Part shown: positions 20,521-59,050 of the stretch, piece after piece
Layout of the letters: each line of letters opens with the position of its first letter
How positions within the stretch are numbered: the stretch's first letter is position 1
Assembly: GCA_951406725.2 (NCBI GenBank)
Contig: OX597814.1
Coordinates: 114,266,001 to 114,330,000 of the forward strand
Direction of reading: 5' to 3'
Source: Octopus vulgaris
Lineage: Eukaryota
DNA: 64,000 nucleotides
Notes under the pieces: model-generated
Databases searched by the model: none
Seen by the model: only the letters and a program-made list of their open reading frames with translations
What the model was told of the DNA's origin: nothing
Made by a program: the position numbers and the translations under genes

Positions 20521-21489
20521 GAAGTAATGCAGTGGAAAATGTATAATGGTAATCCTAGTTCTACTCTGTCTCAATAAAAGACAGGATGATCATAACTGGA
20601 GTGTCTCTGAATGTTTGCTGGATCAGGGATGACCTAACCTATACAGCAATATATTATTGGTTTCAAATTTTGACACACAGCCAAAAATTTCGAGGGGAGG
20701 GGGTAAGTCAATTACACTGACCCCAGTACTTCAAGTGGTACTAATCTATTGACCCTGAAAGGATGAAAGGCAAAGTCGACCATGGCAGAATTTGAACTCA
20801 GAACATAAAGATGAACAAAATGCCACTGAGAAAAATGCCACCCAGCTTGCTCATAATTCTGCCAGTTTGCCATCTTGATGATAATAATAATAATAATAAT
20901 AAATGCCCTGATGCAGTACCAGGCAGTGGCTCTCGTGCTTCTGATCTTAACTGAACTGATTGGAAGTGTTATCATGTACATTGTTTTGCCTTGGTATAAA
21001 AGATGGGCTACAGCAAATATTCTGCTCAATACCACAGATTTGCTTGTCACTTGTTTGACCTTAACCAGTTGACTATGTCCCTTAGTGGCTGACGATATGT
21101 GCATCTCTGATCATGAACAGAAGTAGTGGGGGAGCATCATAGCCATGTGTTGAGAGGAATTCTTTGGGGCTTGAATAATTCACCTCTGGAAACATGGGTG
21201 GTTCGTTCAACATCCTTAAACAATCCTTATTCAGGGACCTTTTGAGCATGATGGGCTACTCGATTAGAAGAAAATTCTAACTGGGCCCCACCTGCAAGGT
21301 CATGTGCTGCTTATCTTGATATGAGATCACCATGTCACGCACATTTGGTTGTGATGCCTGGTGTACCCTTATCAGACAGGTAGACATGATGGGTATACTG
21401 GGCTTTGTATATTTTACCCCAGTGTCACTTTAATGGCATGAAAATACTAATACTACTACTACTAATAATAATACAAATAGCATATTCAC

Positions 21490-22539: not shown

Positions 22540-22995
22540 GGCTACTAACTCCAAAATTCCGAGTTCGATTCCAGGCAGTGACCTGAATAATAATAATAAT
22601 AATGAATTCTTTTTTATTGGCCACAAGGGCTGACACGCATGATTACATGAAGGGACAAGACAGGACGAAAGGTTACAAAGGGTTTTGTCCGTTTGTTAAA
22701 AAAATCCGTGTAAAAATACATTAACAATAATTATAATAAAACAATGAAAAACTCCCAAAAGGGGGAGACGTTTCGAAAGGTTCCTGGTGGAAAAACCCTA
22801 CAAAAGCCAACGGGAGCCTGGTCAAAAAAAAAAAATAATAATAATAATAATAACATCGAAAAATACCTAAGGAATGAGAACCCAGGTGTGAAATTTCCCC
22901 AAGACACCTGATGAAGGCTGGAGGGTATATCAGATGAAACGTTGTGTTAACAACAAACAAGATGAGGACAAATATCCATCAAATGTAAATAATGT
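22540..22995 (+). mobile_element. tRNA-head/hammerhead element, copy A (single arm, insert in AAT linker)
   Basis: 3' half of head (gagttcgattcc), AAT linker, hammerhead at 22903-22948. Confidence 0.75.
22903..22948 (+). ncRNA. Minimal type I hammerhead ribozyme motif (stem II weakened)
   Basis: gacacCTGATGAaggctggagggtatatcagatGAAACGTTgtgtt. Confidence 0.6.
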
Positions 22996-30878: not shown

Positions 30879-32498
30879 CTTCAATCGTATTTCGGAGATA
30901 AAAAAAAAAGAAATTAGAAATATTATTACAACATTTAGGTTTTGTGTGGAAGTGCATGGCTTAGTGGGTAGGGTGTTGGGCTCATGGTTTTAAGATTGTG
31001 ATTTCAATTCCTGGACCAGGCAATGCATTGTGTTTTGAGCAAAACACTTCATTTCATGTTGCTCCAGTCCACTCGGCTGATAAAGATGAGTAAACCTGTA
31101 ATGGACTAGGGTCTTATCCGAGGAGGAACATATACGCCAGAGAAACCAGGAAACAAGCCCTATGCCCCTTACAGAGTAATGTGAAGTAACTATTTAGGTT
31201 TTTAAGGTTTTTAAAGAAGAGGCAGCAACATGATCACTTCTTAAATCCCATTTTACAATTAGATTTAAATTGACCTGACAAATGAAGCGAGTTCATGGCT
31301 CACAGGATGGCCTACTGTGCTTGGATCGTAGAGTGACCCGCTGTTCTTGAGGAGACCTATTGAGTCAAGTATGTCAACACCAACATCAAAATGAAAATCA
31401 AATGGAAATTGTAGTTAAGATACCCATGCTGGTGACACGTTAAAAGCACCGTCCAAATGTGGCTGATGCCAGCGACGCCTGACTGGCATCCATGTCGGTG
31501 ACACGTAAAAGCACCAACCAATCGTGGCCGTTTGCCAGCCTCTTCTGGCCCCTGTGCTGGTGGCACATAAAAAGCACCCACTATACTCACGGAGTGGTTA
31601 GCATTAGGAAGGGCATTCAGCTGTAGAAACACTGCAAGATCAGATTGGAGCCTGGCGTAGCCTTCTGGCTTCCCAGACCCCGGTCGAACCGTCCAACCCA
31701 TGCTAGCATGGAAAACAGACGTTAAATGATGATGAGGAGGATGATGACCTCTATTACTTGACCCAAGGCCAATACTTATAAATAAGCAGTCATGAACAAT
31801 AGAGCCAAATGGCACCTGTTCTATCAACTGGAGAGATGAAAGGCAGGAAATAAAATCAAATCAATCTCAGTAGGATTTGAACTTGGAACAGAGAGGGACA
31901 AAACTAATTACTGCAAGACCTATCAGTCATTGGGTATAAAATTATGGTCAGCAAAAACCTATTTTGAAATCCAAATTTTGCAAATGCTGCCAATAAAATG
32001 TGATGTCTATTCTGGTAATATAATTAGGAAACATATGACCACCACTACCATCATCATCCATGCAGGGGTCAAAGCAAATTCATTAAAGTAGATCTGCTAT
32101 ATCTGGATGCCTTTCCTGTTACTAACACTCATATGTATCTAATCTATGTCGTGTCCTTGAGTGGAACTTATAAGAACCTATTGAAAGAAGCCACCAAGAT
32201 ATAAACTGTTACCAGACTGTCAACAGGGATCTCCTTCACTAAACAAACACTGGAGCAGCATACTGACAATGGTCAAAATTGTCTCTGGAAATGTCTGCTG
32301 GGGTGCTTTGACTGGTTTATGGGTCTCACAATGTTGGAAAATCATGTTCACAACCGTATATGTCTTTTATGGAGAGGAAGAACCTATTTTACATAATAAC
32401 AGGAAACACAGACTCTGACACAGCTGTCTTAAAGTTCTGACAGCAATGGAACTAGTTACCATTGAAACTTAATGTAGTAAATAACAACAAAAATAATT

Positions 32499-32842
32499 AC
32501 ATTATTTACATTTGACGAATATTTGTCCTCATCTTGTTTGTTGTTAACACAACGTTTCGGCTGATATACCCTCCAGCCTCCATTGAGTGCGTTGGGGAAA
32601 TTTCACACCTGGATTCTCATTTCTAAGGTATTTTTTGATGTTATCATTAATATTATTATTAATATTATTATTATTAATATTATTATTAACCACTATGCCA
32701 TATGCCCACGGGCATATGGCGTAGTGGTTAAGAGCATGAGCTACTAATCCCAAGATTCCGAGTTCGATTCTAGGTAGTCACCTGAATAATAATAATAATA
32801 ACAACAACAACATTGAAAAATACCTTAGGAACAAGAACCCCA
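32499..32842. mobile_element. Palindromic tRNA-head/hammerhead element, copy B (partial)
   Basis: Centre atatgccc-ac-gggcatat at ~32708; full head 32710-32783; left-arm hammerhead with degenerate CUGA core. Confidence 0.75.
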
Positions 32843-48008: not shown

Positions 48009-49937
48009 ATATGCCACACACATCAGCAAATAAACTTCACTCTATTTGCATATAAGTCATAGACTGGAGCAATGCTCTGCAACTGGTGTGCCACAGAGTA
48101 ACCTGAATATAATTTTTTACCCTGTACTTTTAGTTATATCTTTATATCAGGTATGCCCTAGTCCTAGGGATTCAATTTGTTTCAAGATGATCCAAGTACA
48201 TGGTATTGATAAGTCACAATAATGATGAAATTTTGGTAGCTACCATTCTTGGTGATTCCAAGGAAAGTTGTCTTGCTTGGTCTGTGACATTTAGGTGTAC
48301 TTTAACACTTGGCATCAATTAGGGAGCTTTCCCCAGATGCTATCCCACAGCAAATTTGGCATATAGACAAAATATACACTTTGTATGAGTAACCTAGAAT
48401 GAGTTCTAAGTTTGCAAGAGAGACCATGTTGTGTCTATGTTGAAGCTAAATACTTTGCCCCTATCTTTTTTGATTTTAATTTTAACTTTTTTTTTTTGAG
48501 TCCATAAGAACTCATAAGGCCTGATATAAGCGACTAGGATCACAACATTTCCCTTGGATGAGATGCCAGTCCATTGCAGGGTTCAAAGCCTGTAATTTTG
48601 AGGAGAGAGGACAAGTCAATTACATTAACCCATGAAGTATACCCTTGTCTTGACATCATACGATAGTTGTAAAAGAATGTTTCCAGTCTTCGGTGAAAAA
48701 TGTCTGGTAATGGGAAATATTAGTTTGCTTGGAATCAGGTTGGGATTGGTGGCAGGAAGGGCATCCAGCCACAGAAAATCTGCCTCGATAAATTGTTTGA
48801 CCCATGCAAGCATGGAAAAGTGGACAATTAAGATGATGACATGTGTTTGTGTGTGTGTGTATAATGAGGACGATGATGATGATATATAGATATTAATAAA
48901 TAACAACGAAAGTAGTACCATAAATCCTTGAGTATAATATGCAGGGGATTTTTAGGGGGCTGTACCTCTGAAAAACCTAAACCTTGTGTATAATACACAC
49001 CACTTCTCTAACTTGAGTCGTGTGTAAATAAGCCAGCAGCACTTAGTCGAACAAACACTTCCGTGCATGCGTAATACAATAATGGTGATGTTCTTAACTG
49101 TTATATGGGAATGTAAATACGTTCGCAAATTGTTTTTGTTACATGTTATTCTGTGTTTTGAATACTTTTATTTTAATAAATGATGCTTACTGCAAGTTAT
49201 GGATGATTCTTTTATGACTTCATTGCTTTCAGGCTTAGCTTAAGGTATTTTTGCACCCAACATCACAAAATGCATCTGAATAAACATTGCTGGACAGCAA
49301 ATAGAGACTTGGACATTGCTTAGAAAGTATTTTTCATTGTTAACCTCGTGTATAGTACGCACTAGGGAATTTGACCTTTAAAGTTTGGAAAAAAATGCGG
49401 ATTATACTCAAAGATTTATGGTACTCAATCTTTTTGGTTAGAGTAACATGTATTTAATAACAGTCTGGCTCAGATCTGCATTACTTAAAGTTTCATGAGT
49501 CCACAGAACACATCCACCTAGTCAGATGTTCAGAGACAGGATAAAGAGTTTGAAAGGAATTTTAAATGGTTCTTGGTGATTAAGCTTCTATTTTGGTCAG
49601 CTCAAGTCATGTGGTTGTAATGATATCAAAAGCAACAGTCATTTTCTTTGTTTTTAGTCCCCAAGTTGCAGACAGGATGTTGGTGTCACATTAATAGCAA
49701 GCTGCTGGATGATATATTCAGTGATATCAATTCCTTGTATTGAGTACTTCAAGGAAACAGTTACACCCACATAAAGACTGTTTTTAATGATTTCAAACTC
49801 CACTCAATGATGACTAGTGACTGACACCACTTGTATGACGGTGACACTCATTTACGAACAAAACCCAATGTCCCTATGAGACACAAACAAACATTATTTA
49901 CATTTGACGGATATTTGTCCTCGTCTTGTTTGTTGTT

Positions 49938-49980
49938 AACACGTTTCAGCTGATATACCCTCCAGCCTTCATCAGGTGTC
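49938..49980 (-). ncRNA. Hammerhead ribozyme motif (3-nt deletion at cleavage site)
   Basis: Reverse complement reads gacacCTGATGAaggctggagggtatatcagctGAAAcgtgtt. Confidence 0.5.
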
Positions 49981-50194
49981 TTGGGGAAATTTCGAACTTG
50001 GGTTCTCATTCCTAAGGTGTTTTTCGATGTTGTTATTATTATTATTCTGGTCAATGCCTGGAATTGAACTCGGAATCTTGGAGTTAGCAGCCTATGCTCT
50101 TAACCACTACACCATATACCCTCAGACATATAGCATGGTTGTTAAGAGCGCAGGCTATTAACCCCAAGATTCCGAGTTCAATTCCAAGCAGTGA

Positions 50195-50239
<45 letters not shown>

Positions 50240-50255
50240 CAATAATAATAATAAT

Positions 50256-50809
50256 GCCCTGATGCAGTACCAGGCAGTGGCTCTCATGGCTTCTGATCTT
50301 ACCTGATTGGAAGTGTTATCATGTACATAGTTTTGTCTTGGTATAAAAGACTGGGCTACAGTAAATATTCTGCTCAATACCACAGATTTGCTTGTCACTT
50401 GTTTGACCTTAACCAGTTGAGCATGTCCCTTAGTGGCTGATGATACGTGCATCTCTGATCACGAGCAGAAGTAGTTGGGGAGCATCGTAGCCATGTGTTG
50501 AGAGGGTTTCTTTGGGGTTTGAATAATTCACCTCTGAAAACATGGGTGTTTCATTCAATATCCTTAAACAACCTTTATTCAGGGACCTTTTGAGTGGGAT
50601 GGGTTACTCGACCTGAAGAAAATTCTAACTGGGCCCCACTGTAAGGTTATGTGCTGTTTAACTTGATGTAAGATCACCATGTCGCGCACATATGGTTGTG
50701 ATGCATGTGCCTAGTGTACCCTTATCAAACGGGTAGTCATGATGGGTATACTAGGCTTCGTATATTTTACCCCAGTGTCACTTTGATGGCACGCGCTGCT
50801 CTCTCACTC
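50256..50809 (-). mobile_element. ~550-bp interspersed element sitting in (AAT)n tracts (other copies 20905-21440, 33224-33753)
   Basis: Three highly similar copies, each abutting (AAT)n; strand inferred from the tail. Confidence 0.75.
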
Positions 50810-50890
50810 AATAATAATAATAATAATGATAACAACAACAACATCGAAAAACACCTTAGGAATGAGCACCCAGGTTCAAAACTTCCCCAA

Positions 50891-50936
50891 GACACCTGAT
50901 GAAGGCTGGAGAGTATATCAGACGAAACGTTGTGTT
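50891..50936 (+). ncRNA. Minimal type I hammerhead ribozyme motif
   Basis: gacac-CTGATGA-a-ggctg[loop]cagac-GAAA-C-GTT-gtgtt: stem I gacac/gtgtt, stem II with one mismatch, palindromic AACGTT in place of helix III. Confidence 0.7.
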
Positions 50937-51817
50937 AATAACAAATAAGATGAGGACAAATATCCGTCAAATGTAAATAATGTACATAATTCCTCATCTC
51001 TTAAATATAGAACTGTAGTAACAAACATGTCTTACAAGTTGTGTCGGTCACTAGTTATCACTGAGTGGCGTTTGAACCACTTTATGTGGGGGTAACCATT
51101 TTGATGGTTGGAGAGTTACAATTGAGGACATTTGACCAACATCTTGCCTATCCTGTTACATGCAGTCCTCAACACAAAAAAACTAATATCACAAAATACC
51201 ACACTGCAATCTACTGTCAATATCGTGCTAACATCCAGTCCACAACTCATAGACCTCATTTCTGTTTGCCTTCACTTGTTGAAATTTTTAAATGAAGTGA
51301 AAATTTTCAAATTTTATGTGTTGATGTAATTTTTCATGCTGAGTCTCAGGCTGTTTCAGAAAAAATGTTTTCAAAAAGAGGTTTAAAGTTTGATCATTTT
51401 TATCCAGTCAGAAAACAGGATTTGGAAGCATTTCAGTAATTAGCATACAAAACCACATCAATACACTAAATTTGAAATCAATTAGAACAAAATTGATAAA
51501 GTTGCAAAGTGAAAACCAAACAAAAAAAGAGTATCATCATCATTGTTCAACATCCGCATTCCATGCAGGCCTGGGTTGGACGGCTTGACAGAGCTGGCTA
51601 GCAGGGAGCTACAGGAGAAGACACTTTTCCAAGTGGGGCTGAATGTGAAATTAGGTGAGGTTAGGAAACAAACTTCTTCACCACACGGCCATACCTATTT
51701 CATTATATATATATATATATATATAAGTAAATAAATAAATATATGGCGGTGCCCCAGCATGGCCACAGCTCGTGAGCTGAAACTAGATAAAAAAATAAAA
51801 TATATATATATAAGTAA

Positions 51818-58035: not shown

Positions 58036-58422
58036 TTATTTACATTCGACGGATATTTGTCCTCGTCTTGTTTGTTGTTAACACAACATTTCAGCCTTCT
58101 TCAGGTGTCTTGGGGAAATTTCGAACCTGGGTTCTTATTCCTAAGGTATTTTTCGATGATGATGTAGTTGTTGTTGTTCAGGTCACTGCTTGGAATCGAA
58201 CTCAGAATCTTGGGGTTGGTAGCCCGTGCTCTTAACCACTACACCATATGCCTGTGGGCATATGGCGAATGAGAACCTAGGTTCAAAATTTCTCCAAGAC
58301 ACCTGAAGAAGGCTGAAGAGTATATCAGCCGAAAGGTTGAGTTAACAACAAACAAGATAAGGACAAATATCCGTCGAATGTAAATAATGTACATAATTCC
58401 TCATCTCTTAAATATAGAACTG
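58036..58422. mobile_element. Palindromic tRNA-head/hammerhead element, copy D
   Basis: Inverted arms with centre ~58254 (right arm lacks most of the head); CTGAAGA cores; tail 58391-58422; flanking direct repeat aatt(t/c)aagatt 58025-58035 / 58423-58433. Confidence 0.8.
58298..58343 (+). ncRNA. Hammerhead ribozyme motif variant (CUGAAGA)
   Basis: gacacCTGAAGAaggctg...cagccGAAAggttgagtt: perfect stem II, mutated helix III and stem I. Confidence 0.55.
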
Positions 58423-58589
58423 AATTCAAGATTCGTTGGAGGGAGGGAAGAATATATACTCAAAATGCAGATCTGACCCAAATGCCGTACAAGAAAACTG
58501 ACCATTCTTTCTAAAAGTATGCAGTGGGTGTAATATCTTTGACCATTGTTCTATATTCTCGCCTCAAAGTTGAAGCTGAAGGTGTTGTT

Positions 58590-59050
58590 GGGACTACACT
58601 AGATCCACAGAGGAACGCATGAAAGCTGTCGCTAGATGCAGTGTGTGGTGGCCAAACTTGAATGTTGAGACTGAAATGACATGTAATGTTTGTGAAGTAT
58701 GCTCTCGGGATCAAAGCAGTCCAGCTCAGCCCCGGGAATATCCAAACCAGCCATGAGAAATAATATACGGTAGACTTTACTGGTCGATTCGTGGGACATG
58801 GTCTTAATTGTTGTTAAGTAATCGAAATGGACGGAAGTCTGTATCATGAACTGGGCAGCTGCTACTGTCAAAGTGAAAAAGTTGAGAGAAATCTTCGCCA
58901 TTCCTGGTCCGCCGATAATATCATTAAGTGACAATGGTCTATGTTTTGTTAGTAAAGATTTTAAATTATTTATAGGCTTTCCTGGAATAAGGCATATATT
59001 CACTGCCCCGTAACATCCCTTGTAACGACAATGTGTAGCGATACGTTACA
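58590..59050 (+). mobile_element. Degenerate Gypsy/Ty3 integrase relic
   Basis: Frame from 58861 reads KLREIFAIPGPPIISLSDNGLCFVSKDFKLF..GIRHIFTAP*HP; upstream RMKAVARCSVWWP. Confidence 0.75.

Follow-up and report, generated by a model that had tools for sequence, protein, structure and literature searches.

The window examined here is a 64,000-nt stretch of octopus DNA from a genome of 2.8 Gb (G000), and loci elsewhere are cited by the labels used in our analysis (L135, L237 and so on). Among its dense repeats lies a hammerhead RNA motif that lacks helix III, which an original prediction had presented as a new ribozyme expected to cleave as a dimer. The layout given there agrees with the sequence at every position. 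Stem I pairs GACAC (50891–50895) with GTGTT (50932–50936), the core CTGATGA (50896–50902) is followed by one extra A (50903), and stem II pairs GGCTG (50904–50908) with CAGAC (50919–50923), leaving a single mismatch in this copy at 50922. GAAAC (50924–50928) then runs directly into GTT (50929–50931), which places the palindrome AACGTT at 50926–50931 and the predicted cleavage site 3' of GUU, after 50931. The perfect form of stem II was indeed found at 58311–58330 and in the arm at 32498–32642.

Several of these traits identify the class. The core boxes CUGANGA and GAAA-N-N-UH stand in type I order, stems I and II pair, and, as in the minimal hammerheads described in the text of Cervera and de la Pena (2014; PMC4209133), helix III is missing, an extra base lies between positions 9 and 10.1, ahead of stem II, the pair G10.1–C11.1 is present, positions 15.2–16.2 are palindromic, and helix I is short. 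The motif is thus the published minimal hammerhead of Penelope-like elements (PLEs). The fold and the dimer model originally proposed are right in kind, and both had already been reported for PLEs in that study.

Short motifs of this kind invite the suspicion of chance. The heptamer alone is close to its random frequency in the window (33 matches against 27.9 expected), and an Rfam scan of the window returned no hammerhead family match; its microRNA matches were below threshold and lay on SINE-like families and microsatellites. Nevertheless, the 24-nt stretch from stem II into stem I has 4043 exact matches in the genome, compared to none for a reversed control. The complete arrangement is found several thousand times, and we consider the motif real. 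With RNAfold, stems I and II both form in L135, a natural copy that is intact, and not in the focal copy.

The hammerhead belongs to a repeat of about 190 nt that has six arms in the window (Table 1). None of the six passes a filter for intact hammerheads, and the original statement that every copy carries a lesion therefore holds here. The companion statement, that only the consensus is predicted active, is correct within the window and fails beyond it, since 10 of 129 arms not picked by their hammerhead sequence (called unselected arms below) are intact elsewhere in the genome. Arbitrary stretches totalling 400 kb contain eight arms, and two exact anchors have 7816 matches. From these counts, the number of arms genome-wide would be in the tens of thousands.

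Table 1. Features of the hammerhead-bearing repeat in the window
Feature	Position	Strand	Remarks
Minimal type I hammerhead (no helix III)	50891–50936	+	From sequence; agrees with minimal hammerhead in the text of PMC4209133
Right arm, 3' part of pseudo-LTR ("tail"), ending at long 3' end	50841–51017	+	
First ~52 codons of PLE ORF	50862–51017	+	Frame continuous with RT-EN ORF in L218 and L237
Extension of ~33 nt in one arm only (PLE tail signature)	50984–51017	+	
tRNA-derived 74-nt segment, right arm	50124–50197	+	A box decayed; B box about 50174–50184
(AAT)n spacer, first part	50198–50255	+	
Unrelated repeat, later insertion into (AAT)n spacer	50256–50809	.	Bounded by AAT repeats at either end
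(AAT)n spacer, second part	50810–50840	+	
tRNA-derived segment, left arm	50048–50121	-	Head to head with right arm
Left arm tail, short 3' end	49891–50033	-	Hammerhead with 3-nt deletion at predicted cut
Further arm, short end	22852–22995	+	Hammerhead with stem II lesion; head fragment 22541–22591
Inverted copy	32498–32790		Tail 32498–32642 (-), core destroyed; head 32715–32790 (+)
Inverted copy	58036–58422		Short arm 58036–58161 (-); head 58174–58248 (-); long arm 58267–58422 (+)

The focal copy is decayed, with a stop in its reading frame at 50946–50948, and both arms of the inverted copy at 58036–58422 carry the subfamily variant in which N7 is A. The repeat inserted in the focal spacer has related copies at 21004 and 33319, and similar insertions interrupt other copies as well (L005, L017, L023 and L026). 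At least three other dense SINE-like families (among families D5, D10, D14 and D20) share the window, along with many microsatellites.

The original prediction did not recognize the parent of the motif, which is almost certainly a decayed, high-copy PLE of the Penelope/Poseidon type. Some arms continue upstream into coding sequence, and walking from these yielded pieces of RT and GIY-YIG domains. The unit runs from the ORF (RT, then GIY-YIG) through 40 nt, a 74-nt tRNA-like segment (the head), (AAT)n and the hammerhead to the tail, and is present whole in L237. Among loci picked by the 3' end of the ORF, the head stands behind the ORF in 29 of 30. The RT matches Pfam RVT_1 (E 8.6e-12) and is 47% identical to an 836-aa Anolis protein, P0115. 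In an 18-row RT tree, which contains no named Repbase references, it is separated 100/100 from two Neptune rows and falls on the same side as P0115.

Other features of the element agree with this placement. As pieced together across L237 and other copies, a single ORF encodes RT followed by a C-terminal GIY-YIG domain with CCHH, and it lacks the zinc-finger linker of Neptune. The C-terminal domain was assigned by motif likeness to P0115 and to an 847-aa homologue, P0021; Pfam GIY-YIG had no match in this piece. The pseudo-LTRs occur both in tandem and inverted, with an optional tail of 30–40 nt. No intact ORF was found among the ORF-bearing loci examined in the genome, and no splice-like joint of the kind that the 5' UTR intron of some PLE members would leave was evident in RNA reads of decayed copies. 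Matches to viral contigs were weak.

Neptune PLEs of the same genome were rejected as the parent because, among 50 Pfam GIY-YIG loci, none of 30 matched the tail and the other 20 gave one 22-nt match. Those at L075–L100 also combine RT with GIY-YIG and have a minimal hammerhead, theirs near the 3' end. They differ from the octopus Poseidon-type element by the zinc-finger linker, a U3-A8 core variant, (TA)n targets, six to eight TTTT runs per ORF of 1.7–1.8 kb, and the lack of any DNA match to its tail. Non-LTR retrozymes, which consist of head-to-tail tandem repeats with a hammerhead in each unit, do not describe a family whose copies are mostly inverted pairs.

The hammerhead lies inside the first codons of the ORF. 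The ATG precedes the core by 34 nt and the tail is in frame with the ORF, and hammerhead and tail also encode the start of the ORF copy that follows. Since the ATG is upstream of the cut, cleavage at GUU would take off the start codon. The peptide of 50862–51017 can be aligned with the P0021 N-terminus (E 4e-20), and the part over the core (PD[DE]G..PKRCV) is common to both, with different codons in loop II. This shared core peptide suggests that the hammerhead was maintained across species. A search with the N-terminus of P0021 gave no match besides P0021 itself. The N-terminal residues of three Poseidon-type proteins, P0089, P0115 and P0021, resemble hammerhead-encoded peptides, in different frames, and the clade may often have a hammerhead that overlaps the beginning of the ORF.

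Selection on the ribozyme is not apparent among the genomic copies. It had been claimed that the heptamer varies only at N7, a small-sample effect, because other core positions also mismatch in unselected arms. Change of U to A at N7 occurs in 27 of 137 unselected arms as a single subfamily variant that goes together with another site (N7A/128G), is common to both arms in 7 of 10 pairs, and is the sole subfamily change within the hammerhead. The original prediction also expected the core to be more conserved than its flanks. In arms not picked by hammerhead sequence, non-CpG mismatches numbered 50 of 1364 at core positions other than N7 and 588 of 12286 in the flanks (3.7% versus 4.8%; P=0.068), the first 45 arms gave P=0.9, and CpG sites mismatch at about 19% in core and flank alike. 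To judge from these counts, the genomic copies are dead and drifting neutrally. Dead insertions are expected to drift, and the failed check thus does not refute a function in the source element.

The arrangement of the arms reveals how they were inserted. They are accompanied by the (AAT)n spacer and the head, mostly as head-to-head pairs, and their 3' ends form two classes about 33 nt apart (125 long, 101 short and 13 other among 239 arms). Of 70 inverted pairs examined, 13 were set aside as ORF run-ons and 6 were unclassifiable; the remaining 51 comprise 46 with one long and one short arm, four with two short arms and one with two long arms. Flanking duplications of at least 6 nt were found in 15 of 49 pairs, compared to 3.5% of shuffled pairs, and 8 of the 15 are 12 nt long. 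Therefore, one inverted pair corresponds to one insertion. Unequal arm ends are the tail signature of PLEs (PMC8557442), which in Anolis Poseidon has been attributed to reverse transcription that begins at two internal sites (Frangieh et al. 2024; PMC11167929).

A rival possibility is that the short copies form a separate tRNA-derived SINE family with a borrowed PLE tail and hammerhead. Most arms do consist only of head, (AAT)n and tail, which gives them the look of SINEs, and a tRNA-related head with A and B boxes is typical of such families. We nevertheless consider this explanation improbable. The head is part of an autonomous, ORF-bearing element, as the ORF-end loci demonstrate, rather than of a non-autonomous family that is distinct from its partner and ends in a LINE-type 3' tail, and a stand-alone tRNA-SINE was dropped as the parent once the head had been located behind the PLE ORF. 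Furthermore, the short copies have no poly(A) or repeat tail. Their 3' ends are PLE start sites, and they stop there, lacking the part of the downstream ORF that was required as template by Anolis Poseidon (PMC11167929).

The head of the PLE deserves separate attention. Its 74 nt are identical at 49 positions to a tRNA-Arg gene of the same genome (z 7.9; the best of 25 distinct tRNA genes). Its cloverleaf is broken, yet it retains canonical-looking motifs that resemble A and B boxes. An Rfam scan of a head and ARAGORN at its default score made no tRNA call. Arms tend to terminate at the 5' edge of this segment. Among 86 arms that reach the head, at loci not picked by upstream sequence, 22 end within it, 50 at -15 to +5, six at -17 (a palindrome effect) and eight beyond -20, such that 50 of the 64 arms still running end at the edge. 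The density of ends there is 0.037 per nt, compared to 0.005–0.007 on the flanking sides.

A second property concerns runs of T. In 143 copy fragments (104 kb), TTTT occurs 34 times and AAAA 1348 times, and no TTTT site is found in more than 11% of copies, at a cover of at least 14-fold over tail and ORF. With no such site common to the copies, the source element had none over its 2.5-kb sense strand. Synonymous shuffles give P 0.021 and 0.038 for this absence, and 11 control ORFs of the same genome give P 0.37–0.98. The strength of the test is modest because 2 of 37 other PLE spans of at least 1.5 kb, from metagenome contigs, are also free of TTTT, and one of these has a CCAAT/TATA-like promoter. 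That contig (L323) holds a complete PLE with both pseudo-LTRs and an unusual hammerhead core, CTATGA, and is well suited as a control of the Pol II type.

The ends at the 5' edge of the head and the lack of a common TTTT run make transcription by Pol III plausible, and from them we infer a tRNA-type promoter. The chances appear evenly balanced that the head functioned as such, and are lower that Pol III used the whole coding unit. The element could instead be an ordinary Pol II PLE that captured a tRNA-SINE head by chance, with arm ends caused by RT stalling and fold-back or by a TATA-directed start, and with the lack of TTTT due to luck. We regard this as a serious possibility, though not the one we would choose. 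A TATA-like TTTATAA lies about 35 nt before the head start, a 5-bp hairpin overlaps that start and many ends at -7 and -14 fold back on it, and 2 of the 37 control PLE spans lack TTTT as well. Pol III has moreover been argued to be poorly processive, such that autonomous elements must use Pol II (PMC10886601). In opposition to this explanation, the ends lie beyond the hairpin, to its 5' side, and at several of them the junction is with unrelated DNA and shows no fold-back. Both boxes have kept a canonical look while the cloverleaf has broken down. In addition, TTTT is present in the UTRs of both TTTT-free controls, as against the UTR plus head of only 2 of 29 octopus copies.

In the metagenome PLE loci that were checked, a regular expression for A and B boxes had no match in the 500 nt following the ORF span. 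In three raw RNA runs (X22–X24, under another species label), no pile-up of read ends was seen anywhere on the element; the reads were compared with L012 and L202, the second of which has a diverged head that would not reveal a step at the head start. The reads cover both strands about equally, which fits read-through of old copies and has little bearing on the source RNA. On L012 and L202, the reads display 20–52 A>G and 24–35 T>C places, compared to 7–14 and 6–7 for contigs of other runs. Editing of A to I in RNA from inverted arms would give such an excess, although contigs drop rare variants and individuals differ.

The metazoan minimal hammerhead is inactive as a monomer and weakly active as a dimer or trimer (Cervera and de la Pena 2014), and PLE hammerhead dimers are the subject of Lunse et al. 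(2017), as cited in a review (PMC6765202). The original claim that cleavage needs two RNA copies therefore has a published basis and is incomplete. In a folding model, the palindromic AACGUU duplex is worth -3.5 kcal/mol, and a swapped, active-like dimer (-21.3) gains no stability over two monomers (2 x -11.5). The weakness predicted for this duplex is in line with the low activity of minimal hammerheads and with the Anolis Poseidon hammerhead, which cleaves only with the ORF protein present (Frangieh et al. 2024).

In its simplest form, the dimer model would have two free RNAs from genomic copies pair through AACGUU and cleave themselves unaided. The weak activity of Schistosoma dimers and trimers in vitro (PMC4209133) is encouraging in this regard, and both intact arms (the 10 noted above) and tandem arrays exist. 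We nonetheless judge it rather unlikely, given that the copies are mostly inverted, such that the two strands of a read-through transcript would anneal to each other. The dimer predicted to fold best (-33.0) forms an inactive duplex, the active-like one being without gain, and the protein dependence of the Anolis hammerhead also argues against unaided cleavage.

The tandem array at L305 (G000:C2:2731500-2739000) has nine units, each made of about 215 nt of tail plus (AAT)n. Its units meet at the long end rather than at the hammerhead cut. A 3-nt deletion is present in seven of them and absent from two.

The same deletion recurs throughout the family. Deletions touching the cut site occur in 33 of 148 unselected arms, compared to 2–19 in other 6-nt windows, and 20 of the 148 share an identical loss of 3 nt that spans the predicted cut. 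Genome-wide, this form has 500 exact matches against 4043 for the intact sequence, and loss of one neighbouring AAC unit, which serves as a slippage control with 5-nt microhomology, has 98. When the first 100 of 826 deletion alleles were counted by eye, 76 had lost 3 nt (seven of these from one tandem array), 11 had lost 5 nt, eight 2 nt and five 1 nt. RNA reads under another species label carry the 3-nt form at about 8% (250/3257 and 213/2637). Inheritance as a subfamily allele was rejected because the deletion is unlinked to N7A/128G and is present in exact form in only 3 of 20 partner arms. Deletions at the site are found in 13 of 69 younger and 17 of 66 older arms, and thus do not rise with copy age.

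From this hot spot we infer a scar of partial cleavage, and whether the 3-nt deletion truly records hammerhead action seems to us a little short of an even proposition. The competing explanation, polymerase slippage in GTTGTGTT during reverse transcription or DNA replication with no bearing on cleavage, stands at even chances. Every deletion allele is compatible with slippage in this sequence, with microhomology at all of them, and 5 of 20 three-base deletions read as loss of CGT or follow a C>T change that yields a perfect TGT repeat. Truncated 5' ends of arms are not in excess at the predicted cut (5 of 239 within 3 nt). Slippage is also favoured by a second abundant family of minimal hammerheads, in which none of 100 copies has a deletion at the cut site. 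By contrast, longer microhomology should be preferred in slippage, and the commonest allele is the one with the shortest microhomology (2 nt; 76 versus 11 and 8), and it is five times as common as the AAC loss with its 5 nt. A loss of 3 nt is moreover the product expected of cDNA running off at the cut. The lack of increase with age likewise speaks against slippage, as do the two CpG decay products (11 TG and 18 CA), both found among the deleted alleles.

The second family is of interest in itself. It has the core CTGACGA, a 4-bp stem II and GAAACGTT, and its exact anchor has 2413 matches in the genome, often beside (TA)n. Examples are found at L004:2595, L049:2599, L186:2925, L190:2908, L224:3312 and L234:65.

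The interpretation that we favour, and consider somewhat better than an even proposition, is that the motif is the pseudo-LTR hammerhead of a Penelope/Poseidon element with a tRNA-type Pol III start upstream and partial cleavage at GUU that requires help. A tandem source copy would be transcribed from the head, starting about 0–7 nt before the tRNA-like segment, and the transcript could cross the ORF, which is free of TTTT, and enter the following pseudo-LTR. Uncut RNA would be translated into the RT-EN protein, which would prime once per target strand, at internal sites that lie about 50 nt and about 85 nt beyond the cut, and this would produce head-to-head pairs in which a long arm faces a short one. 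The short, SINE-like copies, which are very numerous and run off at the RNA 5' end, would stem from priming in the first pseudo-LTR, and copies that bear the ORF from priming in a later one. The hammerhead would cut a share of the RNAs, aided by a second hammerhead and by the element's own protein. By removing the start codon, cleavage would switch the RNA from message to template or waste. If RT encountered a cut template, the cDNA could run off the 3' fragment and re-anneal on the GU that ends the 5' fragment, with loss of 3 nt. The most far-reaching version of this proposal is an autonomous retrotransposon with a tRNA promoter, a 2.5-kb unit purged of Pol III terminators, and a scissile-bond scar that records cleavage in the germ line; Pol III would then have produced its message as well as SINE-like by-products in the tens of thousands. 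We think this unlikely.

Much of this system has precedent. The hammerhead and its dimer model are already known, and the element is a new member of Penelope/Poseidon. With the minimal hammerheads of Cervera and de la Pena (2014), it shares a location in the pseudo-LTR, mostly scattered truncated copies, and opposite-strand pairs 100–700 bp apart. The text of that report to which this comparison applies names no cephalopod, and neither the tRNA-derived pseudo-LTR segment nor the cut-site deletion is mentioned there.

The Poseidon element PAc of Anolis carolinensis (PMC11167929) also has a hammerhead that overlaps the ORF start, RT followed by GIY-YIG, and two internal RT starts that give an optional tail of 30–40 nt; the start of P0115 fits the description of PAc. 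Its hammerhead mutants insert normally in vitro, and no reads end at the cut. The octopus element differs in that its first ATG is 34 nt upstream of the core and not, as in PAc, at stem II, in having the tRNA-like head and (AAT)n ahead of the hammerhead, and in that no copy with an intact ORF was found.

Combinations of hammerheads with Pol III-type promoters are known from other repeats. The SM-alpha and Sj-alpha SINE-like repeats of Schistosoma have a Pol III-type promoter followed by a hammerhead (PMC6765202), and animal non-LTR retrozymes have been tied to PLE pseudo-LTRs (bioRxiv 10.64898/2026.07.22.740005). As described in these sources, such repeats are non-coding and tandem, whereas the octopus family is an autonomous RT-EN element found mostly as inverted pairs. 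The TRIMp3 elements Cassandra, Helenus and Ajax (Kojima 2024; PMC10886601) likewise have a Pol III promoter derived from a small RNA in their terminal repeats. Unlike the octopus PLE, they are non-autonomous LTR elements of less than 1.3 kb, and their autonomous partners are argued to require Pol II.

Two features are left for which no precedent was found in the papers searched, namely a tRNA-type segment in a PLE pseudo-LTR and a recurrent 3-nt deletion at the cut site. The text of an octopus repeat annotation (PMC13282606) reports Penelope, and SINE families of which many are unclassified, at a level of detail that does not extend to these features. Repbase, Dfam, subscription journals or the library of that annotation may hold the family under another label.

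The minimal hammerheads of animal PLEs have low activity in vitro, and the Anolis one needs protein and gave no RNA ends at the position where it cuts (PMC4209133, PMC11167929). For cleavage in vivo, a scissile-bond deletion hot spot would offer a cheap test in any genome. A coding retroelement driven by Pol III would contradict the rule of thumb by which autonomous elements rely on Pol II (or on Pol I read-through), and translation of its uncapped RNA would call for an explanation. In some RNA viruses, ribozyme cleavage supports cap-independent translation (PMC13725137). Such a PLE would also make SINE-like repeats by itself. If neither Pol III use nor the scar holds, then the motif is one more ordinary PLE hammerhead.

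Several other observations were made in the course of this work. The GIY-YIG loci L075–L100 and L116 belong to a young Neptune-type family in which many 781-aa frames are open and whose copies are flanked by (TA)n and carry U3-A8 minimal hammerheads, and the genome holds several further Neptune families. Single motifs resembling minimal hammerheads, with GAAACGCGT palindromes, were encountered at L032:- and L064:96 and probably belong to other PLE families. Within the window, positions 58420–58700 resemble, by eye, part of the zinc-binding region of a Ty3/Gypsy integrase.
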